This document shows positions 19,491 to 46,125 of a stretch of DNA of 64,000 nucleotides, piece after piece. The translations under genes and the position numbers were made by a program. Within the stretch, counting starts at the first letter, position 1. The number at the start of each line of letters is the position of its first letter. The notes under the pieces are model-generated. The model was not told the DNA's origin. It did not search any database and saw nothing but the letters and a program-made list of their open reading frames with translations. The stretch lies in NCBI RefSeq assembly GCF_048403405.1, contig NZ_CP183129.1; one strand, written 5' to 3'. The stretch is from Escherichia coli. GTDB taxonomy: Bacteria > Pseudomonadota > Gammaproteobacteria > Enterobacterales > Enterobacteriaceae.

Positions 19491-20319
19491 GGTTTACCCC
19501 CTTGCTGACTGGTTTAACCTGCGCCCTGACGTGATTTACGTGACGGGCGAATTTCTGCTCCCACTGAATCTGCGTAAACACTTTCCCCTCCGCTGCCCAG
19601 TAGTCCCGGAAGGCGGCAAGTTCAGCAGGTGTAAATTCTGTCTCCGGCAAAGCCATCCCCCACAACGCAGCCCGTCGTCGAAAATCCCGTGACGGATACC
19701 AGCTATCGGTCATCGGAAATTTTCCGATGGGTTCGCTCAGGCCATCCAGGAATACAAGGGGTGCTGCCTGTAACGACAAAACTTCCTGCTCACTGGTCGG
19801 AGCACTCTCGCGTGCGTTATGTGTGGGGTTTAGATCTTTGGGTTCCTTTGGGTTCCGTGATCCGTTTTTGGGTGTCTTTGATGGAAAATTTGGGTGTCTT
19901 TGGTTATTTTCCATGCAGCTAAGAGTTCCGTTTTTGGGTCTGTTTTGTGCTGAAACATAACCATTTTCGGTACTGTTTTTATTAACAGCACCAATTTTAC
20001 CCACCTTTAAAGACTCCCGTTTTTGGGTGTATTCAGGCTCGGCAACACTTTCTTCTACACCGATAAGTCGGTACACCACAATTTGCTTTGTTCTGCCTTT
20101 TCTCTCACCGGTATCAACAATTAACCCAATCTCCATCAGGTGTCGTAAGCTGTCCTGCACAGTCTTTTTGTTCAGTTCCGTTACTTCTGCCAGTGCAGAT
20201 ACAGACGGGTATGCACACAAATCGGCACCGCACATATCAGCAAGCCAGGTCAATACAGACTTACTGGATGAACTGCCGGTTTTCACCTTTTTAGCCCATC
20301 GTAGTGCATCGATACTCAT
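19279..20319 (-). CDS. Replication initiator O-like protein with N-terminal HTH domain
   Basis: ATG 20319 with AGGGGT upstream (MSIDALRWAKK…); iteron repeats inside the gene. Confidence 0.75.
   Translation of the reverse strand: MSIDALRWAKKVKTGSSSSKSVLTWLADMCGADLCAYPSVSALAEVTELNKKTVQDSLRHLMEIGLIVDTGERKGRTKQIVVYRLIGVEESVAEPEYTQKRESLKVGKIGAVNKNSTENGYVSAQNRPKNGTLSCMENNQRHPNFPSKTPKNGSRNPKEPKDLNPTHNARESAPTSEQEVLSLQAAPLVFLDGLSEPIGKFPMTDSWYPSRDFRRRAALWGMALPETEFTPAELAAFRDYWAAEGKVFTQIQWEQKFARHVNHVRAQVKPVSKGVNHAAAPGGTASRAVQEIRAAREQWERENGFISDGNGLEAVGTHGGGLFEPLDPEERGRTFEALDCTDWRDD
19835..20035. repeat. Putative replication origin iterons inside O gene
   Basis: Repeated CCGTTTTTGGGTGT-like units at 19861..19876, 19926..19942, 20016..20032 plus TTTGGGTTCC/TTTGGGTGTC partial copies; adjacent A/T-rich stretch. 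Confidence 0.6.
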
Positions 20320-20842
20320 ACAAACCCCTGGCAGACATTTGTTTATCTGCAAAGTAATATTGATATTGCTGACGATACGCATGCTTGAAAGCAATAGCTT
20401 TTTCTATAAGCTCGTCAGTCTCACGTTCCACAACAGCTGGATCCGCAAAAAGCAGCCCGGACTCCACCACATCGCCATATTCTTTGTTTAATCCGGCGAT
20501 CATGTACGTAATGCTTTTTCCATCACTGATCTCACGATACAACCTGAAATCACTAATTCGGATAGCCTCCATAATTGCCGGAATCAGCGCCGTGAATTTT
20601 TTCCGCTTATCCCTGGTGTCGATAGCTTTCCAGCGTTCGAATATCTTCACCCGGTTAACGCCCAGCGCCCGTTGATCAACCTCGCCATCATTAAACGTGA
20701 CGCGTTGAACATCGATGTTCGGGCGTTCTTTCAGAGCCCAGAATGCTTCCGTGATTAATATCGTCGCTTGCTCCTGTGTCATTCCTGGTCGACATACCCA
20801 GGCATCCAGAGCCTCACAAACCTGTTCAGGGGTGATTTTCAT
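20291..20842 (-). CDS. Early regulatory protein, possibly YdaT-like
   Basis: 183 aa directly downstream of cro-like gene; …KRKKFTALIPAIMEAIR… resembles what I recall of YdaT; low certainty. Confidence 0.5.
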   Translation of the reverse strand: MKITPEQVCEALDAWVCRPGMTQEQATILITEAFWALKERPNIDVQRVTFNDGEVDQRALGVNRVKIFERWKAIDTRDKRKKFTALIPAIMEAIRISDFRLYREISDGKSITYMIAGLNKEYGDVVESGLLFADPAVVERETDELIEKAIAFKHAYRQQYQYYFADKQMSARGLYEYRCTTMG

Positions 20843-21053
20843 TGTTCAACCGCCCCGCCCGCTTTGCCTTACGATATTCGTCATAAACTTTGGGGTCGTA
20901 CTGAAGTTCCCCGCCGGATGCCTCCTGTAGACGCATCGCGCGACCTTCAGGAACCAGTTTCCCCCATGCAGCAACGCTTGCCAGCCTAACTCCTGCGGCA
21001 TTGGCAAGCTTTGTTTTGCTGCCAAAAAACGCTATAGCATCAATTTTCAACAT
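20826..21053 (-). CDS. Cro-like repressor (DicC/YdaS type)
   Basis: 75 aa MLKIDAIAFFGSKTKLANAAGV…; divergent from DicA-like repressor. Confidence 0.75.
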   Translation of the reverse strand: MLKIDAIAFFGSKTKLANAAGVRLASVAAWGKLVPEGRAMRLQEASGGELQYDPKVYDEYRKAKRAGRLNNENHP

Positions 21054-21129
21054 ATCGAACTCCTTAGATTTTCCTAAGGAAACTAGATCGTAGAGAAACC
21101 TAAGTCAAGAAAAATTAGAATTACCTAAT
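21054..21129. promoter_or_regulatory. Divergent immunity promoter/operator region
   Basis: 20-bp element TCCTTAG-ATTTTC-CTAAGGA at 21061..21080 (7-bp inverted repeats) plus further CCTAAG half-site. Confidence 0.6.
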
Positions 21130-21537
21130 ATGAAAAACGAAACCTTCGGTGCTCGCCTCTTATACAGGCGTAAAAAATTAAAACTGTCTCAGGCCGCATT
21201 AGGTAAGCTGGTCAAAGTGGCTCACGTAACAATTTCTCAATGGGAAAGAGATGAAACACAGCCAGCGGGGAAGAGATTATTCGCACTGAGCCAGGCGCTT
21301 CAGTGCTCGCCGACTTGGCTTCTTTTTGGAGATGAAGATAAGCAACCAGGCGAACCGATCCCAGATAATCAGCCAGTTAATCTGACAGAAGATCAAAAAG
21401 AGTTGCTTCAACTGTTCGACGCACTGCCTGAGTCAGAGCAAAAGGCTCTGTTGTCAGAGATGCGTGCTCGAGTTGAGAATTTCAACAAACTTTTTGAAGA
21501 ACTACTCAAAGCTCGCAAAAGAAGCGCAAATAAATAA
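21130..21537 (+). CDS. DicA-like XRE-family repressor (cI analogue)
   Basis: 135 aa; HTH KLSQAALGKLVKVAHVTISQWERDET. Confidence 0.8.
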   Translation: MKNETFGARLLYRRKKLKLSQAALGKLVKVAHVTISQWERDETQPAGKRLFALSQALQCSPTWLLFGDEDKQPGEPIPDNQPVNLTEDQKELLQLFDALPESEQKALLSEMRARVENFNKLFEELLKARKRSANK

Positions 21538-21573
21538 CCCTCCCTTTTTTTTCGCCACTCTCTGTAATAAAAA

Positions 21574-21602
21574 GCACAAACTTTCAAATGCTTGTGTTTT
21601 TT
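21574..21602 (+). terminator. Hairpin plus T-run after repressor gene
   Basis: GCACAA…TTGTGT stem (long loop) followed by TTTTTT. Confidence 0.4.
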
Positions 21603-21637
21603 ACATCAAAAAACTTAGGTTTTTCTACACAAAAAGC

Positions 21638-21667
21638 TTGACCATAATTCTTAGGTTATTCTAAATT
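21638..21667 (+). promoter_or_regulatory. pL-like early promoter with operator half-sites
   Basis: TTGACC-17nt-CTAAAT; CTTAGG at 21613..21618 and 21650..21655 matching operator half-sites of the divergent region. Confidence 0.5.
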
Positions 21668-21743
21668 CTACTCATCAAGACACCGCACGGTGTTCTCAGC
21701 AAACAGTTCCGCTACCCTGGCGTTAAGGGGAAATGAGGTCAGC

Positions 21744-21896
21744 ATGGATACTATCGATCTTGGCAACAACGAATCTCTGGTATGCGGCGTGTTTCCCAAC
21801 CAGGACGGCACGTTTACCGCGATGACGTATACCAGAAGCAAAACGTTTCAAACTGAAGCTGGCGCGCGTCGCTGGTTAACCAGAAACACTGACTGA
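21744..21896 (+). CDS. YdfA-like small protein (DUF1391-like, 50 aa)
   Basis: ATG 21744 after GAGGT; MDTIDLGNNESLVCGVFPNQDGTFTAMTYT…; first gene after DicA-like repressor as in Qin. Confidence 0.65.
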   Translation: MDTIDLGNNESLVCGVFPNQDGTFTAMTYTRSKTFQTEAGARRWLTRNTD

Positions 21897-21907
21897 TGAG
21901 GTTGACG

Positions 21908-22282
21908 ATGGAATTTAAAGATTTACCAGTACCATTCCAGGAAATGGCATCGAATGTGGTTCGCTCTCAACTGGCGACTCTTGACCTGAGTACCGTAGAA
22001 AAAGAAACCATCGATACTATATCCGGTAACGTGCGTCGTGCCTTTATCGGTCTGTACGAAGAGAAGCAGCTCTCTGATAACCAGGATTTACATGAAAAAT
22101 ACTTCCTGGAATTAATGGACATCATTAATAAAGGATTTGGCTTGTTAATGAAAAAGAAAGGGATTCGAATAGCTCCCCTTGAAAATCATTTTACAGCGAG
22201 CAGTATTAATTCCTGTGATTTAAAGCATCACACATCCGATGGGAAAGTTGAATCAAACAACAAAATATCAATTAATCATTAA
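21908..22282 (+). CDS. Hypothetical protein (124 aa)
   Basis: ATG 21908 after GAGG, 11 nt past ydfA-like stop. Confidence 0.5.
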   Translation: MEFKDLPVPFQEMASNVVRSQLATLDLSTVEKETIDTISGNVRRAFIGLYEEKQLSDNQDLHEKYFLELMDIINKGFGLLMKKKGIRIAPLENHFTASSINSCDLKHHTSDGKVESNNKISINH

Positions 22283-22581
22283 TTTATTCACAGGTGAGGT
22301 AGAGTGCGTGCGCCGGACACGGATAAGAATCCGGCACTGACAGTTTACTAAAAAGGATATATCCCTGAAAAGTCAGGGCATAACACGAAAGCGCCCGGCG
22401 AAGTTAGTCTCTCTGTATAGGTCGTCGTTAAATTTAATTCGATCGTGCGCTTCCGGTTGTGGCAATCCGCGAAATGGCGCGGCGGTAAGTATGGCTGGGG
22501 TTTCCTCCATTGCTCCAGAAAATGCACCGGGTTGTCAGGTTGACCATACGCTTAAGTGACAGCCCCGCCACAATACCCATG

Positions 22582-22633
22582 TGTAGTCTTTGGTGGCATC
22601 AGTTCTACTCCGTGACTGCTCTGCCACCCTTTT
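22582..22633 (+). ncRNA. dicF: DicF-like small RNA
   Basis: GGTGGCATCAGTTCTACTCCGTGACTGCTCTGCCACCC + TTTTT closely matches the K-12 DicF sequence as I recall it, with compensating stem changes; sits between ydfA-like genes and dicB. Confidence 0.75.
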
Positions 22634-23109
22634 TAAAGTGAATTTTGTGATGCGGTGAATGCGGCTAAGCGCACGCGGAACAGTTAAAACCAAAAACAGT
22701 GTTATGGGTGGATTCTCTGTATCCGGCGTTAATTGTTAACTGGTTAACGTCACCTGGAGGCACCAGGCACCGCATCAACAAAGTTCACTTCGGTGATGAA
22801 AGGTAAGAGAAAATGTTGAATGTAGCTATTGAAAACCAGAACGGGTGGAATTATAGTGCACCTGCACCTCATAAAACGGGTGCCGGGCGTGGAAACCCGG
22901 AATTCAATCAAGCGCATAACCGCGCTCAGGCGGTTTTTTTATGCGTCAAGCACAGCCACATTCAGATTATGGTGGGGCGTGCAGGGCAGCTGCAAGGCTG
23001 GCCGGATTCTTGGTTGACCGGTATTTCCACCCCTGTACGCCTCACCACCCTTATGGTCGTGGAAAACCTTGGTGGTGAGTTATTAATACTCAACCAAGAG
23101 GCTGCCATT

Positions 23110-23667
23110 ATGGCTACTATCCCTACCCTTTCTCACCCTGACGTAACCATCGAAAATGGTCGCGCTGTCACTACGTCTGTTGCGGTTGCAGAGTTCTTCC
23201 GCAAAATGCACAAGGACGTTCTGCGCAAAATTGAAACGCTAGAATGCTCTGAAGATTTTAACGAGCGCAATTTTACGCCCGTTACCTACACCGACGCCAA
23301 AGGCGAAAAACGCCCCATGTACCAAATCACCAAAAACGGCTTCGTTTTCCTGGTGATGGGGTTCACAGGTAAAAAAGCCGCAACTTTCAAAGAAGCCTAC
23401 ATCGCTGAGTTCGATCGCATGGAGGAAGAACTGCGCCAGAATAACGCCCCGTCTCCCGACAAAATGATTCACGGGGACGGACGCACCCTGGTTATCCGTC
23501 TCGACGAACACGGCAATATCAAATTCACTGAAACCGTTCCTGACGGCGCAATGGTCTGCACCCTGGATACCTTCCGGTTTTATCTGGAGAAACAAGGATG
23601 GACTCTTGTAAACCGGAGCGCAATTAAAAATATGACTGTGGAGCAATTGCTAAAAATTCATTGTTGA
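23110..23667 (+). CDS. Rha-family phage regulatory protein
   Basis: ATG 23110 after AAGAGG; …ENGRAVTTSVAVAEFFRKMHKDVLRKIETL… Rha domain; ORF track extends in frame to 22813 but that part contains a terminator-like hairpin. Confidence 0.8.
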   Translation: MATIPTLSHPDVTIENGRAVTTSVAVAEFFRKMHKDVLRKIETLECSEDFNERNFTPVTYTDAKGEKRPMYQITKNGFVFLVMGFTGKKAATFKEAYIAEFDRMEEELRQNNAPSPDKMIHGDGRTLVIRLDEHGNIKFTETVPDGAMVCTLDTFRFYLEKQGWTLVNRSAIKNMTVEQLLKIHC

Positions 23668-23677
23668 GGACGCGATA

Positions 23678-23866
23678 ATGGAAACGTCACTACCAAACGT
23701 TAATACGTCTGACGGGTGCTTTAATATTGGTGTTCTGCTCAGTAACAGGGATTTCACCGAGGATGCAATCAATATGAGAAAATATGAACCCTACCTGCTG
23801 AATGACAATTCCATACTCTCCAGAATTGCCCTTCTTAAACTCGGTATTTTCGGAGAGTGGCGATGA
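23678..23866 (+). CDS. dicB: Cell-division inhibitor DicB
   Basis: 62 aa METSLPNVNTSDGCFNIGVLLSN…, same length and strong similarity to K-12 DicB. Confidence 0.85.
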   Translation: METSLPNVNTSDGCFNIGVLLSNRDFTEDAINMRKYEPYLLNDNSILSRIALLKLGIFGEWR

Positions 23867-24066
23867 ACACATTATTCGTACTCATTCTGACTGTACATCT
23901 CAATACTGGTGAGTCGCTTGATGCAATCACCGGCATGTACAACTCAATGAAAGAATGCATGGCTGCCGCAGCGGAACAGAAAATTCCCGGCAACTGTTAT
24001 CCGGTCGATAAAGTTATTCACATGGACAATAACGAAATCCCGGCGGGGCTTAAAACAGCACCGTAA
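23857..24066 (+). CDS. YdfD-like small protein
   Basis: …NTLFVLILTVHLNTGE…AAAAEQKIPGNCYPVDKVIH…; directly after dicB as ydfD in Qin. Confidence 0.7.
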   Translation: MAMNTLFVLILTVHLNTGESLDAITGMYNSMKECMAAAAEQKIPGNCYPVDKVIHMDNNEIPAGLKTAP

Positions 24067-24143
24067 TTAATATCCGGTTTCATTTTTATATGCCAGCAAT
24101 GGCAGGGATTTGTTCACCCTTAAATCTGTAATGAGGTTTATCA

Positions 24144-26600
24144 ATGAGCACTGATAAAGAAGAAATTGCACTATATTACGAAGCCAAAAATGACAAAATC
24201 AGAAAACGTCTTGGAATTAAAGGCGGTTTTTACTGGCGCACAGCAAAAAAATTATCGGTTGCAATATCACGCGGTGTTGTCGCAATGGACGATGCCGGAT
24301 TTGACAAAGAGGATTTTAAAAAACCTGTTCGCGTCCATTTACCCGTTGTGAATGACCTTCCTCCGGAAGGCGTGTTTGATACCGAATTCTGCAACCGATA
24401 CGAAAAGGGCGGTGAAGATGGTATCACAATGGTACTTATCGCGCCCTCGCCCTCTGTTCAGGATAAACCAGCCAGCACTGACAATACCAACGTCAACGGC
24501 GAAGACATGGCTGAGATTGAGGAGAACATGCTCCTGCCGGTTTCAGGTCAGATTCTGCCTGTTCGATGGCTGGCACAGCACGGCAGCGAAAAACCGATCA
24601 CACACGTTTCGCGGGACGAACTGCGCACATTACATAACGCACAGGATGAAAAACTTCCCGCCGTTACCGCGCTGGCCATCTCAAATAAAGCAGCGCAACT
24701 CGAACCGCTGGAAATTCGCGATCTCCACAAACTGGTTCGTGACACGGACAAAGTTTTCCCTAATCCTGGTAATTCAGACCTGGGACTGATGACTGCTTTT
24801 TTCGAAGCATACCTGGGCGCTGACTACACCGATCGCGGTCTGCTGACAAAAGAGTGGATGAAAGGAAATCGTGTTTCACGCATCACCCGCACGGCTTCCG
24901 GTGCTAATGCCGGTGGAGGGAACAAAACCGATCGCAATCCGAATTTAGTACACACCTTCGATACGCTGGATGTGGAGATTGCAGCGGCCACACTTCCGAT
25001 GGATTTTAATATTTATGAAATTCCGGGCAGCGTTTATCGTCGCGCAAAAGAAGTCGTCCGGAAGAAAGAAAGTCCGTTCAAAGAATGGTCCGCAGCACTT
25101 CGCGCAATCCCGGGTATCCTGGATTATTCCCGCGCCGCTATTTTTGCACTTATCCGAAGCGCACACCCTGAATTTTATCACTACCCGGGACGCCTTCAGG
25201 GGTATATCAACGCCTATTTGACGGAAACTGATCACGAGAACCCTACCGAGGAAACTCTCGCTGCTGCACGACATACACCGGAAAAAGATATCCTGGAAGA
25301 AGTTAACCGCGAACTGGCTGCTGAACGCGAAACAGAAGAAGAAAAAAATAATGAGGAAAAATCACAACCGTCTGACGCAATGGCAGATGAACAGGCAACG
25401 ACTGAAGCAATGGAGCCGAATACAACTGAACATCGCCAGGACACGCAATCGCTGGATACTCAGGCACAGATAGATCCGGTTAATCAGGTAAAAGTTACCG
25501 CTGACGAAGTAAACAAAATTATGCAGGCAGCCAATATCAGCCAGCCTGACGCCGATAAGTTGCTTGCGGCCTCTCGCGGAGAATTTGTTGCAGGGATTAG
25601 CGACCCGAATGATCCGAAATGGGTCAAGGGGATGGAAACCCGCGATTCTGTGAACCAGAACCAGCAAGAAACGGAACAGAACGGCCAGAAAGCGGAACAA
25701 AACAGCCCAAATGCGTTACAAAACGAGCCAGAAACGAAACAACCTGAACCAGTAGTGCAACAGGAACCGGAAAAGATCTGCACCGCCTGCGGTCAGACCG
25801 GCGGCGGCAACTGCCCTGATTGTGGCGCGGTGATGGGCGACGCAACATACCAGGAAACATTCAATGAAGAGAATCAGGTTGAAGTTCAGGAAAATGATCC
25901 GGAGGAAATGGAAGGCACTGAACATCCACACAAGGAGAACCCTGGCGGCAATCAGCATCACGATAGCGATAGTGAAACTGGCGAGGCGACAGATCACTCA
26001 GTTAAGGTGAACGGTCATCATAAAGGCACATCCACCAGCGGGACGTGTGACCATCTAATGATCGACCTTGAAACCATGGGAAAAAATCCAGATGCCCCGA
26101 TTATCTCAATAGGTGCAATATTTTTCGATCCGCAAACCGGAGATATGGGACCGGAATTTAGTAAGACTATCGATCTGGAAACTGCTGGCGGAGTCATTGA
26201 TCGGGACACCATTAAATGGTGGCTTAAGCAATCACGCGAAGCGCAATCTGCCATTATGACCGATGAAATCCCGTTAGATGATGCACTGTTACAATTGCGG
26301 GAATTTATCGACGAAAACTCCGGCGAATTTTTTGTTCAGGTCTGGGGAAATGGAGCCAACTTCGACAACACGATTTTGCGCCGTTCATACGAACGGCAGG
26401 GGATCCCCTGCCCGTGGCGTTACTACAACGATCGCGATGTACGCACAATCGTTGAGCTGGGGAAAGCCATAGACTTCGATGCCAGAACGGCTATTCCATT
26501 CGAAGGTGAGCGCCATAATGCACTTGATGACGCCCGTTACCAGGCAAAATACGTTTCAGTTATCTGGCAAAAACTGATCCCGAGTCAGGCTGATTTTTAA
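24144..26600 (+). CDS. Large phage exonuclease: N-terminal domain, acidic/Gln-rich linker, C4 zinc ribbon, C-terminal DEDDh 3'-5' exonuclease domain
   Basis: 818 aa; MIDLETMG (Exo I), WGNGANFDNTIL (Exo II), HNALDDARYQAKY (Exo III); CTACGQTGGGNCPDCG ribbon; same position as the 'exodeoxyribonuclease VIII' genes of lambdoid prophages. Confidence 0.8.
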   Translation: MSTDKEEIALYYEAKNDKIRKRLGIKGGFYWRTAKKLSVAISRGVVAMDDAGFDKEDFKKPVRVHLPVVNDLPPEGVFDTEFCNRYEKGGEDGITMVLIAPSPSVQDKPASTDNTNVNGEDMAEIEENMLLPVSGQILPVRWLAQHGSEKPITHVSRDELRTLHNAQDEKLPAVTALAISNKAAQLEPLEIRDLHKLVRDTDKVFPNPGNSDLGLMTAFFEAYLGADYTDRGLLTKEWMKGNRVSRITRTASGANAGGGNKTDRNPNLVHTFDTLDVEIAAATLPMDFNIYEIPGSVYRRAKEVVRKKESPFKEWSAALRAIPGILDYSRAAIFALIRSAHPEFYHYPGRLQGYINAYLTETDHENPTEETLAAARHTPEKDILEEVNRELAAERETEEEKNNEEKSQPSDAMADEQATTEAMEPNTTEHRQDTQSLDTQAQIDPVNQVKVTADEVNKIMQAANISQPDADKLLAASRGEFVAGISDPNDPKWVKGMETRDSVNQNQQETEQNGQKAEQNSPNALQNEPETKQPEPVVQQEPEKICTACGQTGGGNCPDCGAVMGDATYQETFNEENQVEVQENDPEEMEGTEHPHKENPGGNQHHDSDSETGEATDHSVKVNGHHKGTSTSGTCDHLMIDLETMGKNPDAPIISIGAIFFDPQTGDMGPEFSKTIDLETAGGVIDRDTIKWWLKQSREAQSAIMTDEIPLDDALLQLREFIDENSGEFFVQVWGNGANFDNTILRRSYERQGIPCPWRYYNDRDVRTIVELGKAIDFDARTAIPFEGERHNALDDARYQAKYVSVIWQKLIPSQADF

Positions 26601-26661
26601 TGTTCAACCGTCGCCAGTTGTCGTTGATATTCTGCAACTGGCGCGTTCCGGAGTGATAGCC

Positions 26662-26931
26662 ATGAGCGAACAGTACCTGATAACGCTCGACGAGTGGAAA
26701 CCAAAACGGTTCAGTCTCCCAATAACAAACACTACCCTGGTGAAATACGGAAAACTAGGATACATCGTTCCAAGACCACAAAAAATTCGTGGGCGTTGGC
26801 TGATAGATCGCCGAGCAGTATTTGTTGGGCCTGGTGAAACGGGAATTGCGCCGGAAATTCATACTGGCGATGATGATGCACTGAAGGAGATTTTAACTCA
26901 TGTCACCGAGGCCACGAAAAAACAGCACTGA
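26662..26931 (+). CDS. xis: Excisionase (putative)
   Basis: Small ORF immediately upstream of and overlapping int by about 30 nt; ATG 26662 chosen over GTG 26653. Confidence 0.6.
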   Translation: MSEQYLITLDEWKPKRFSLPITNTTLVKYGKLGYIVPRPQKIRGRWLIDRRAVFVGPGETGIAPEIHTGDDDALKEILTHVTEATKKQH

Positions 26932-28018
26932 CGTAGCCGGTCTTTACGAAAAGTTTGATCGCAGAACTGGCAGAGTTTACTACCAGTATAAAAATCCTGT
27001 GACTGGAAAATTTCACGGACTCGGAACAGACAAAGGTAAGGCAGAAAAAATCGCTTCCACAGCCAATCAGCGAATAGCTGCAGCAGAAGCTGAATATTTC
27101 ATGCGCAAAATTGATGAAAGTCCGTCAGCAACAAAACGTCGGGGTATCAGATTAAAGGCATGGGTTGATCGATATCTGAAAATACAGGACACGCGACTGA
27201 AAAATGGAGATATTGCAGCTACAACTCACAAAGAAAAAACTCGAATGGCTGCATACCTGGTTTCCCGTCTGGGAAACCACCCATTGAAAGAACTGGAAGT
27301 AAGAGACTTTGCATTAATACTGGATGAGTGGCTGGATAAAGACATGGTCAGCACAGCGAGAGTAAATCGTGGATTATGGGTTGATATTTATAAAGAAGCA
27401 CAGCATGCAGGGGAAGTTCCTCCTGGATGGAATCCTCCGGAGGCTACCCGTAAACCGATCCCTAAAGTAACCAGAGCCAGGCTCACCATGGAAGACTGGC
27501 AAAAAATTTACAATGCAACGCCTGAAAAACACTTTATCCGTAACGCAATGCTTCTTGCGATTGTTACTGGTCAGCGCCGTGATGACATTTGCCACATGCG
27601 TTTTTCAGATGTGTGGAACGAACACTTGCATATCACCCAGGGAAAAACCGGAATGCGTCTGGCGTTACCGCTTACACTACGCTGTGATGCCATTGGGATA
27701 ACGTTAAAAGAAGTTATTGATGGGTGCCGAGACAGAATATTAAGTCCATATCTAATCCATAGTCGGCACCAGAAACAACCGAAGCCGATGAGTAAAGACA
27801 ACCTGAGCGACTACTTTGCCAAAGCACGGGATCTGGCTGGGATAATTCCACCAGCAGGAAAAACTCCGCCAACATTTCATGAACAACGCTCTCTATCAGA
27901 ACGGCTGTACCGTGCACAGGGTATCGATACAAAAACATTACTAGGACATAAAGTCCAGGCAACCACCGATCGCTATAACGATACTCGAGGTCAGGAATGG
28001 GTTAAGTTGGTTATTTGA
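26900..28018 (+). CDS. int: Tyrosine integrase (lambda Int family)
   Basis: 372 aa; C-terminal HEQRSLSERLY…LLGHK…RYNDTRGQEW resembles lambda Int catalytic region. Confidence 0.9.
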   Translation: MSPRPRKNSTDVAGLYEKFDRRTGRVYYQYKNPVTGKFHGLGTDKGKAEKIASTANQRIAAAEAEYFMRKIDESPSATKRRGIRLKAWVDRYLKIQDTRLKNGDIAATTHKEKTRMAAYLVSRLGNHPLKELEVRDFALILDEWLDKDMVSTARVNRGLWVDIYKEAQHAGEVPPGWNPPEATRKPIPKVTRARLTMEDWQKIYNATPEKHFIRNAMLLAIVTGQRRDDICHMRFSDVWNEHLHITQGKTGMRLALPLTLRCDAIGITLKEVIDGCRDRILSPYLIHSRHQKQPKPMSKDNLSDYFAKARDLAGIIPPAGKTPPTFHEQRSLSERLYRAQGIDTKTLLGHKVQATTDRYNDTRGQEWVKLVI

Positions 28019-28068
28019 CAAACACCATATGGAATATCCGTCACCATCTCAGGAAAAAAGTGTTGTAA

Positions 28069-28188
28069 AATGCGTGGCCTAGTTTTGGGGAAACGTTTTG
28101 GAGAGATTTTGGAGAAAGGAAAAAATTGAATAAATTCAAAATCCTGAAAGTGCTCCACCTTATGAATAAGAAGGTGGAACTCGAATGA
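28069..28188 (+). other. Attachment junction (attR-like) carrying a phage-supplied 3' end of potB
   Basis: Frame ending …KILKVLHLMNKKVELE-TGA with stop overlapping potC ATG (ATGA); last residues NKKVELE equal native PotB C-terminus as I recall it. Confidence 0.6.
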
Positions 28189-30030: not shown

Positions 30031-30060
30031 GCGGGCGGTGGTATTACCGCCCGTTTTTTA
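30031..30060 (+). terminator. Rho-independent terminator after potD
   Basis: GCGGGCGGT…ACCGCCCG stem followed by TTTTTT. Confidence 0.6.
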
Positions 30061-30079
30061 TTTAGCAAGGATGTGGCTA

Positions 30080-30541
30080 ATGAGTCAGGACAGTAGAGTT
30101 TTCTTTCGTATATTCCTCGGTATCGGTCTGGTACTGATCCTCATTTCTGTTGTTGTCTTTTATAACCAGTTCACCTATAGCAAAGACGCGATTCATACTG
30201 AAGGCGTCATTGTTGATACCGTCTGGCACTCCAGTCATTCTCATCGCACGGGTAAAAATGGTTCGTGGTATCCCGTCGTTGCCTTTCGTCCAACGCCAGA
30301 TTACACGCTAATTTTCAATTCGAGTATTGGCAGCGATTTTTATGAAGACAGCGAAGGCGATAAAGTTAATGTTTATTATTCTCCAGGACATCCTGAAAAG
30401 GCTGAGATAAATAACCCGTGGGTTAATTTTTTTAAATGGGGATTTATCGGCATTATGGGCGTTATTTTTATCTCCGTCGGTTTATTAATCAGTATGCCCT
30501 ACTCTAAAAAGACACGCAGGAAACGGAAGTCCCGCCCATGA
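30080..30541 (+). CDS. ymfA: Inner membrane protein YmfA
   Basis: ATG 30080 (MSQDSRVFF…) gives 153 aa. Confidence 0.8.
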
Positions 30542-31323
30542 AAAAAATCATATTATTGCTCAGTTTACTGATACTCCTGCCTCTGACGGCAACCAGTAAT
30601 CCATTGATTCCAATAATGAAGACTCTTTTTACAGATGTTACAGGTACTGTACCAGATGCTGAAGAGATCGCGCATAAAGCCGAGCTTTTTCGCCAACAAA
30701 CCGGGATTGCGCCGTTTATCGTGGTTGTACCTGGCGTTAATGAAGCAAGCTTCAGGCAAAATGGCAAAGCGATGCTGGCGCATGCGTCATCTTCATTGAG
30801 TGATGTAAAAGGCAGCGTCCTGTTACTTTTTACCACCCGCGAGCCACGGTTAATTATGATAACCAACGGCCAGGTTGAAAGCGGTCTGGACGATAAACAT
30901 CTCGGCCTTCTGGTAGAAAATCACACTCAGGCTTATTTACATGCGGACCTCTGGTATCAGGGAATCAATAATGCATTGGCTGTTTTACAAGCACAGATAT
31001 TAAAACAACCGACGCCGCCACTGACATATTATCCGCATCCCGGACAACAGCAGGAGAATGATCCTCCCGGCAGTACCACGATATTAGGTCTTTTTGCCTG
31101 GGCAGTTGCATTCATCGTCTTTACTGCATTTTTTTACTACACGACGCGCCTTAATTATGCATTAAAGTTTGCAGTGGCGATGACTATTGCCAATATGGGT
31201 TATCAGGCTTTATGCCTGTATATCGATAATAGCTTTGCGATTACCAGAATATCGCCACTCTGGGCAGGACTGATTGGTGTCTGTACGTTTATTGCCGCGT
31301 TGTTATTGACGAGTAAACGGTAA
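30538..31323 (+). CDS. ycfZ: Inner membrane protein YcfZ
   Basis: 261-aa ORF with signal peptide and C-terminal TM segments. Confidence 0.85.
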
Positions 31324-31344
31324 AAGAGGCAGTAAAGTGTGCGT

Positions 31345-31445
31345 CTATTATGCCGGAGGCGGCGTAAACGCCTTATCCGGCCCACAAACCCGCAAATTCA
31401 ATTAATTGCGTCCCCTTGTAGGCCTGATAAGCGTAGCACATCAGG
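31345..31445. repeat. REP/BIME-like palindromic elements
   Basis: GCCGGAGGCGGCGTAAACGCCTTATCCGGCC and TGTAGGCCTGATAAGCGTAGCACATCAGGCA. Confidence 0.6.
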
Positions 31446-31459
31446 CAATTCTTCCCGCT

Positions 31460-32281
31460 TTATAAGCCCTTCAGCAACTTTTCAACAAACTCTGGCACCA
31501 CCTGGCTTGCCGGGCCGTAATATTTCTCGGCAAATTCATTACCGACCTGGCTTGGTTCAAGATTCAGTTCCACGGTGTGCGCGCCATGCAGTTTCGCTTC
31601 GTGAACAAACCCAGCTGCCGGATAAACATGCCCGGAAGTACCAATGGCAATGAAAATATCGGCCATCGACAACGCCATATAAATTTCATCCATGCCGAGT
31701 GGCATTTCGCCAAACCAAACGACGTGCGGGCGCAAGGGCGCCGGGAACTGGCAACAATGGCATTTATCTTCTGGCGTAACGTCTCCGGTCCAGTCGAGAA
31801 CCTGACCACTTTGCGAACAGCGAACTTTCAGCAGTTCCCCATGCATATGAATGACATTGGTATTACCTGCGCGTTCATGCAGGTTGTCGATATTCTGCGT
31901 CACCAGCAAAAAGCGATCGCCGAGGGCGTCTTGCAGTTTAGCCAGCGCAAGATGCGCGGCGTTAGGCTGAATTTCTGGCTGCTGTAGCTGTCGACGACGG
32001 GCGTTATAAAACGCTTGCACCAGTTCAGGATCGCGATCGAAACCTTCCGGCGTTGCCACATCTTCAACCCGATGTTCTTCCCACAGGCCATCTGCGGCGC
32101 GAAAGGTACGAATACCTGATTCCGCAGAAATCCCTGCCCCTGTCAGTACGAGTACTCTTGGTTTTTCCATTGCTTCCGGCACCACTTTATCTCTGAAAAA
32201 AATACGCTGACGCAAACGCTCGCGCAGACGGCGTTTATTTTTACGAAAACGACTTAACCGATGACCCCGACGCGACAGCAT
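31460..32281 (-). CDS. cobB: NAD-dependent protein deacylase CobB (Sir2 family)
   Basis: 273-aa ORF; possible premature stop relative to 279-aa reference (see findings). Confidence 0.9.
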
Positions 32282-42729: not shown

Positions 42730-42989
42730 AATAGTGGCCTTATGCAGATGAATGACGTCGCAAGCAATTACTTAACGATCGATAACTAAATGATAGATGT
42801 GATCTGGATCACATACAAGATATTTTTTATAACAATCATTAATTAATTTAAAAATCTTTAAATTTCAGTTAAATAGAAAGCAATTATTTTTATGGGATCT
42901 GGACTGGTGAACGGAGGTGATTATTTTTATAATAACCTTTCATTCACAGTCACCAGGTACAACGGCATCATGGCAACTGACTCAACACA

Positions 42990-43601
42990 ATGTGTAAAAA
43001 AAGCCGTGGCCGCCCAAAAGTGTTCGACAGGGATGCCGCGCTTGATAAGGCCATGAAATTGTTCTGGCAACACGGTTATGAAGCGACTTCTCTTGCGGAC
43101 CTCGTCGAAGCGACCGGAGCCAAAGCGCCCACGCTATACGCGGAATTTACCAACAAAGAGGGGTTATTTCGCGCCGTACTCGACCGCTATATCGATCATT
43201 TTGCCGCTAAGCATGAAGCACAGCTGTTTTGTGAAGAGAAAAGCGTGGAGACTGCGCTGGCTGACTATTTTGCTGCCGTCGCCAACTGCTTTACCAGCAA
43301 AGACACCCCGGCTGGCTGCTTTATGATCAACAACTGCACCACCCTCTCCCCGGATTCCGGAGATATCGGCAATACGCTGAAATCACGCCATGCGATGCAA
43401 GAGCGCACTTTGCAGCAGTTTTTATGTCAACGACAAGCGCGCGGGGAAATCCCGACCCACTGTGACGTGACGCATCTGGCAGAATTCCTTAATTGTATTA
43501 TTCAGGGGATGTCGATCAGCGCACGCGAAGGTGCATCGCTGGAAAAACTGATGCAGATTGCCCGAACGACTTTGCGTTTATGGCCCGAACTGGTGAAATA
43601 A
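42990..43601 (+). CDS. comR: TetR-family repressor ComR (YcfQ); N-terminus possibly altered by a 1-nt deletion
   Basis: 203-aa ORF from ATG 42990; upstream ATG 42970 is out of frame by one base across an A7 run. Confidence 0.85.
   Translation: MCKKSRGRPKVFDRDAALDKAMKLFWQHGYEATSLADLVEATGAKAPTLYAEFTNKEGLFRAVLDRYIDHFAAKHEAQLFCEEKSVETALADYFAAVANCFTSKDTPAGCFMINNCTTLSPDSGDIGNTLKSRHAMQERTLQQFLCQRQARGEIPTHCDVTHLAEFLNCIIQGMSISAREGASLEKLMQIARTTLRLWPELVK

Positions 43602-44309: not shown

Positions 44310-44428
<119 letters not shown>

Positions 44429-45994: not shown

Positions 45995-46125
<131 letters not shown>

Follow-up and report, generated by a model that had tools for sequence, protein, structure and literature searches.

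The Escherichia coli gene cobB is shorter by six codons in the sequence studied here than in strain K-12, which raises the question of whether the gene has been cut short, has been misrepresented in the assembly or is complete as it stands. The DNA analysed, hereafter referred to as the window, is a stretch of 64,000 nucleotides of contig NZ_CP183129.1 (assembly GCF_048403405.1). In the list of open reading frames, the coding sequence of the long CobB isoform extended over 31460..32281 on the minus strand (822 bp), specifying 273 amino acids followed by a TAA stop codon at 31460..31462. The homologous gene of K-12 MG1655 (NC_000913.3, b1120) is annotated as 840 bp encoding 279 amino acids, with the C-terminus KGLKAGSIA. 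An earlier reading made from the sequence alone (hereafter the sequence-only reading) had recognised this difference in length correctly, as the ORF list and the MG1655 annotation confirm; it regarded cobB as ending six codons early, suggested one additional base as the cause and, pointing to comR as a second irregular gene, considered either indel errors in the assembly or genuine strain variation. The analysis presented below leads, with very little room for doubt, to an ordinary, intact and ancestral cobB encoding a Sir2-family NAD+-dependent protein deacylase, in which TAA follows Leu273 and in which the six-residue difference from K-12 reflects the loss of the T of that TAA.

When the two genes were aligned over their 3' ends, a single additional base was identified in the window, TTATAAAG compared with TTA-AAAG in K-12, which agrees with the single-base explanation (against a presumed TTAAAAG) offered previously. 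The additional T, at position 31462, belongs to the TAA stop codon and is absent from MG1655. Two substitutions were found near the junction, GGC in the window for GGA in K-12, which is synonymous, and AGA for AGC. When translation is continued past the stop, one base out of the cobB frame, the minus strand at 31441..31461 reads AAA GCG GGA AGA ATT GCC TGA, that is KAGRIA followed by a TGA at 31443..31441, exactly as the sequence-only reading had it. This stretch is non-coding in the window and its K-12 homologue encodes KAGSIA, with the AGA/AGC substitution responsible for the difference between the two tails. Apart from the missing T, the six additional C-terminal residues and a TGA stop located within a repetitive extragenic palindromic (REP) element, K-12 CobB (NP_415638.3, 279 amino acids; PDB 1S5P and the 6RXJ series) has the same start codon, SIR2 domain, His147 and zinc-site cysteines as the window protein, and the gene neighbourhood, nagK-cobB / ycfZ-ymfA-potD, is likewise the same.

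The 273 residues of the window protein were identical to residues 1-273 of K-12 CobB (273/273). A Pfam search assigned the protein to the SIR2 family (PF02146; residues 48-221, 183.6 bits against a cut-off of 24, E=4e-54), with all 180 positions of the profile (1-180) covered. The catalytic histidine and zinc-binding cysteines known from the E. coli and Salmonella enzymes (H147, C155 and the CHCC sequence at 174-177) were all present; H147 is the active-site residue, and Cys155 and Cys174 belong to the zinc sites (PMC10965786). An internal Met38 corresponds to the start of the short isoform CobB-S of K-12, which is also represented in the K-12 RefSeq annotation, starting 111 nt into cobB. The conserved part of the protein is complete at its C-terminal end, as judged by PDB 1S5P, the first CobB structure from E. 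coli, whose chain spans residues 40-274, by alignments with archaeal Sir2 homologues, which extend to residue 273 of CobB only, and by a length of 273 amino acids in 68 of 80 orthologues (see below). The six-residue tail of K-12 therefore lies outside the part conserved among Sir2 homologues, and because of this position it probably has little or no catalytic role. Deacylase activity of the 273-residue E. coli protein would be expected from the identity of its core to that of K-12 CobB and by analogy with the Salmonella enzyme of 273 amino acids, which has been reported to be active (PMC10965786, PMC8603916).

An identical 822-bp gene appears in RefSeq under the accession WP_000952736.1 ('Sir2 family NAD+-dependent deacetylase'). 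This protein, present in E. coli W, an O157:H7-lineage strain and MS 69-1, among others, is identical to the window CobB over 273 amino acids, has the same stop and shows no difference at the protein level. The gene carries no pseudogene flag. Since this flag is absent and the stop position is that of the outgroup consensus and of 68% of E. coli genomes, the window cobB is not a pseudogene in the sense of a frame broken relative to the ancestral or consensus form.

In order to determine the ancestral state, CobB was compared across the Enterobacteriaceae using one genome per species (GTDB representatives), giving 80 loci, each of which was translated from where its match begins up to the first stop codon. 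The predicted protein had 273 amino acids at 68 loci, 272-276 at a further 11 and 259 at the remaining one, where the match starts at query residue 15 and is hence shorter. Nearly all of the 80 loci, including those of E. albertii, E. whittamii, Citrobacter and Salmonella, ended in LLKGL with a stop immediately after it, and the KAGSIA tail was found at none of the 80 species-representative loci. Salmonella enterica CobB-L, with about 90% amino-acid identity to the window protein, has the same length and the same LLKGL-stop end, and differs in the DNA that follows the stop. Published work gives CobB-L of Salmonella as 273 and CobB-S as 236 amino acids (PMC10965786, PMC8603916). Closer to E. 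coli, TTA TAA was retained, with the same spacer and REP after it, in all six Escherichia representatives that are not of the K-12 type (E. albertii, E. whittamii, three other Escherichia and one labelled E. coli). Because the outgroups stop directly after KGL and carry the tail in no case, the 273-residue end is ancestral; it is also the majority form in E. coli. The description of cobB as ending six codons early has thus to be turned round, as it is K-12 that ends six codons late.

Sequence variation around the junction was examined in 18 Escherichia sequences that keep the T. Of the last 90 coding nucleotides of cobB, 14 positions varied, 12 of them third codon positions, compared with 6 of 13 positions in the spacer. 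This is the pattern expected if the gene is coding up to Leu273 and the region past it evolves like non-coding DNA.

The frequency of the two alleles was assessed in 5426 complete E. coli genomes with junction queries of 32-33 nt, in which the junction has to fall within every 28-nt seed word, making each query specific to one allele. The 273-residue allele, TTATAAAGC, was detected in 2975 genomes on a GGA background and, on the GGC background to which the window itself belongs, in another 701, giving 3676 genomes in total (68%). The K-12 allele, TTAAAAGC, was detected in 1707 genomes (31%), and a query for this allele on the GGC background had zero matches among the complete E. coli genomes; all three queries were without a match in about 43 of the 5426 genomes. 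Genuine strain variation, which the sequence-only reading had named as an alternative, is what the data show. Its view of the stop as out of line with reference sequence holds for K-12, which does stop elsewhere, but not for the thousands of complete E. coli genomes and the outgroups that share the stop of the window.

Annotation and haplotypes were compared in a sample of 15 matched loci and MG1655. RefSeq gives an unflagged cobB of 822 bp (WP_000952736.1, WP_000952746.1 or WP_000952755.1) for E2348/69, W, the O157:H7-lineage entry NADC 5570/86-24/6565, MS 69-1 and others, and one of 840 bp (WP_000952737.1 or WP_000952734.1) for K-12-like alleles. All five sampled loci of the K-12 type had one identical 75-nt haplotype in common; the T allele was found on at least four haplotypes. 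The K-12 allele most probably represents a single event, a deletion of the T of TAA, a single origin being suggested by the uniform haplotype of the five sampled loci together with the zero count on the GGC background. In two of the loci, from the O157:H7-lineage entry NADC 5570/86-24/6565 and strain 214-4, potD directly follows cobB, and ymfA and ycfZ, corresponding to window positions 30038-31323, are missing. This deletion occurs with both cobB alleles (273 amino acids in the O157:H7-lineage strain and 279 in 214-4), which suggests recombination or recurrent loss.

The quality of the assembly was assessed by comparison with other complete genomes. The 401 bp around the cobB stop (31300-31700) were 100% identical and ungapped in at least 28 complete-genome records, among them swine ETEC, O139:H1 isolates, ST2747, MS 69-1 and TUM strains; because these records match exactly, an assembly error at cobB, as proposed by the sequence-only reading, is excluded, and the difference from K-12 is ordinary strain variation and no assembly artefact. 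Over the 24 kb from 20000 to 44000, three complete genomes matched at a displayed identity of 100.0%. A base-by-base comparison with one of these, MS 69-1, revealed one SNP and one homopolymer base, the latter in comR. The substitution, at window position 31739 (C here, T in MS 69-1), is a synonymous change in cobB (Ala, GCG/GCA). In the region of the comR start (42970-43056), the window has a run of seven A residues at 42996-43002 where MS 69-1 has eight. Read from the sequence, the A7 run shifts the comR frame after codon 11, leading to a product of 28 amino acids. Using a 301-bp query around the run, exact matches were obtained in only 4 of 5423 complete genomes (SLK172, tcmA_3, CUPF12 and OZ489144), the other matches listed being one base longer. 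At comR, the three genomes closest to the window across the 24 kb also had one base more, a difference traced to A8 in MS 69-1, and K-12 presumably has A8 too. The A7 run stems either from an error in sequencing the homopolymer or from a recent mutation that inactivates the gene. It is a rare, sporadic change in homopolymer length, unrelated in kind to the cobB polymorphism; the link between the two genes drawn by the sequence-only reading is therefore not upheld and, as they reflect different kinds of event, together they give no sign of a general indel problem in the assembly. For quality control of the assembly it is the comR run, not cobB, that deserves inspection at the level of the reads.

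The same part of the window includes the end of a lambdoid prophage adjoining potC (approximately 20000-28162), with genes for an integrase, an excisionase, an exonuclease, dicB, a Rha-family regulator and cI/Cro-like regulators. Collinearity with K-12 breaks off at 28163, having reached only 26 nt into potB from its 3' end, and the prophage thus appears to have integrated in the 3' end of that gene. About 360 nt more of the 3' portion of potB were compared with the window and had no other match there.

Downstream of cobB, its convergent neighbour ycfZ, encoding a TPM domain protein, is located at 30538..31323 on the plus strand (ORF list and RefSeq annotation of identical DNA), and the 136 bp between the stops of the two genes hold two REP elements on opposite strands. 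REP sequences conform to a recognised consensus, and REP elements and their composite arrangements (BIMEs), when located at the 3' ends of genes, block the progress of 3' exonucleases and thereby stabilise the upstream mRNA. The REP nearest to cobB, GCCTGATGTGCTACGCTTATCAGGCCTAC, at 31418..31446 on the minus strand, was identified as a pattern match with 1 mismatch and has a predicted hairpin; read from the sequence, it is separated from the cobB stop by a spacer of 13 nt (31447..31459, minus strand). The second REP, TGCCGGAGGCGGCGTAAACGCCTTATCCGGCCCAC, at 31351..31385 on the plus strand, contains the inverted repeats I1 and I2 and has its tail motif at 31372-31385. The two oppositely oriented elements form a BIME-like pair. 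The tail motif CTTATCMGGCCTRC occurred in 4 copies at three separate places in the window, compared with 0.05 expected; two of these copies, CTTATCAGGCCTAC, were located away from cobB, at 44353-44366 and 46005-46018. The pair thus combines imperfect palindromes and a dispersed, conserved tail with an extragenic, opposed placement at gene 3' ends, and shares with the REP/BIME elements of E. coli opposed imperfect palindromes of about 30-35 nt, the tail CTTATC(C/A)GGCCTAC and the location between convergent genes. The copy next to cobB is not strictly extragenic in K-12, where its first six bases are translated. A pattern with fixed spacing and a 13-N loop had no match, not even at the cobB-proximal REP, whose loop is shorter. 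Predicted folding adds little to the evidence for these REPs: the hairpin of the cobB-proximal element had a predicted energy of -15.2 kcal/mol (z = -1.1), a stability not significantly greater than that of shuffled sequence, local REP hairpins in general gave z of about -1 against shuffled sequence, and a fold of the whole intergenic region, which pairs both REPs together, was modestly better than shuffled (z = -2.5). A search for intrinsic terminators detected none for cobB between the two genes, the sole match being on the plus strand inside cobB.

On this basis, the origin of the K-12 tail can be outlined as follows. A lineage including K-12 lost the T of the cobB TAA stop, so that translation runs on through the former spacer, read as AAA GCG GGA AGC ATT, and then through GCC, the first three bases of the REP. 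The frame halts at a TGA in the 5' arm of the element, part of the REP motif GCCTGATG, adding KAGSIA to the protein.

Other explanations of the difference in length were weighed against this one. A spurious T arising from an indel error in sequencing or assembly, and creating a false early stop, might be suspected given that one questionable homopolymer difference, the A7 run of comR that is A8 in nearly all genomes, does exist elsewhere in the window. The T of cobB is, however, not within a homopolymer, and its junction is shared by the 3676 complete E. coli genomes, by every Escherichia outgroup representative and by the records with identical surroundings, which leaves an error of this type with a negligible probability. 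Slightly less improbable, though still very much so, is a real truncation, in which a T inserted in the lineage of the window strain would have shortened an ancestral CobB of 279 amino acids. The numbering of the K-12 reference and of the tail-containing chains of the PDB 6RXJ series on 279 amino acids might favour such a view, but it is at odds with the stop directly after KGL in the Enterobacteriaceae outgroups, with the occurrence of the T allele on several divergent haplotypes and the T-less allele on one, and with the non-coding character of the variation past the stop.

The sequence past the TAA might also be used in addition to the shorter frame, with programmed frameshifting or readthrough giving both a 273-residue and a 279-residue CobB. 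In every Escherichia sequence examined, six open codons do follow out of frame before a TGA is reached; a conserved TGA is nevertheless to be expected in any case, because it belongs to the conserved REP motif. Inspection of C TTA TAA A revealed no slippery heptamer of the type X XXY YYZ, the virtual tail changes freely from one haplotype to another (KAGRIA, KAGSIA, KAGKIA and KSGVIA), and outside Escherichia the downstream sequence is unrelated. We therefore consider dual coding to be as improbable as an indel error at cobB. Taken together, the sequence-only reading was right with regard to strain variation, and neither an early stop nor an assembly error was supported.

The position of the REP may have consequences of its own in an intact, ancestral cobB and in its K-12 derivative. 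A REP this near to the stop, 13 nt away in the window and overlapping in K-12, could affect the efficiency of termination or the stability of the mRNA 3' end. Liang, Rudd and Deutscher (2015, Mol Cell 58:431) reportedly found that protein output is lowered, via ribosome stalling and tmRNA, when a REP lies no more than about 15 nt from a stop codon, and both cobB alleles would fall within that range. If REPs at or near stops do stall ribosomes and trigger tmRNA tagging, the K-12 tail, a small new coding sequence made from spacer and REP with its stop inside the REP hairpin, could cause the two alleles to yield different amounts of the deacylase; by analogy with that work we regard this as conceivable, though unlikely. 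Were it true, results on the acetylome and on CobB regulation obtained in K-12 might not transfer quantitatively to the approximately two thirds of E. coli that have the ancestral allele. The literature searched contained no experiment on the effect of a REP at cobB.

The scientific weight of the cobB finding is small. RefSeq already lists both forms of CobB as ordinary proteins, 273 amino acids is the textbook length of the Salmonella enzyme, and to this extent the finding is already known. A derived, partly REP-encoded origin of the K-12 tail was not found explicitly stated in the literature searched; it is a minor evolutionary footnote. It does provide a clean case of a C-terminal extension arising from the loss of one base of a stop codon, in which the new frame is ended inside a REP. 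For the interpretation of other genomes, a gap in length from the K-12 reference is not in itself evidence of truncation or of assembly error, since here the reference holds the derived minority allele. For work on the enzyme, numbering and constructs based on the 279-residue CobB carry six residues that are absent from most E. coli and from all other enterics examined.
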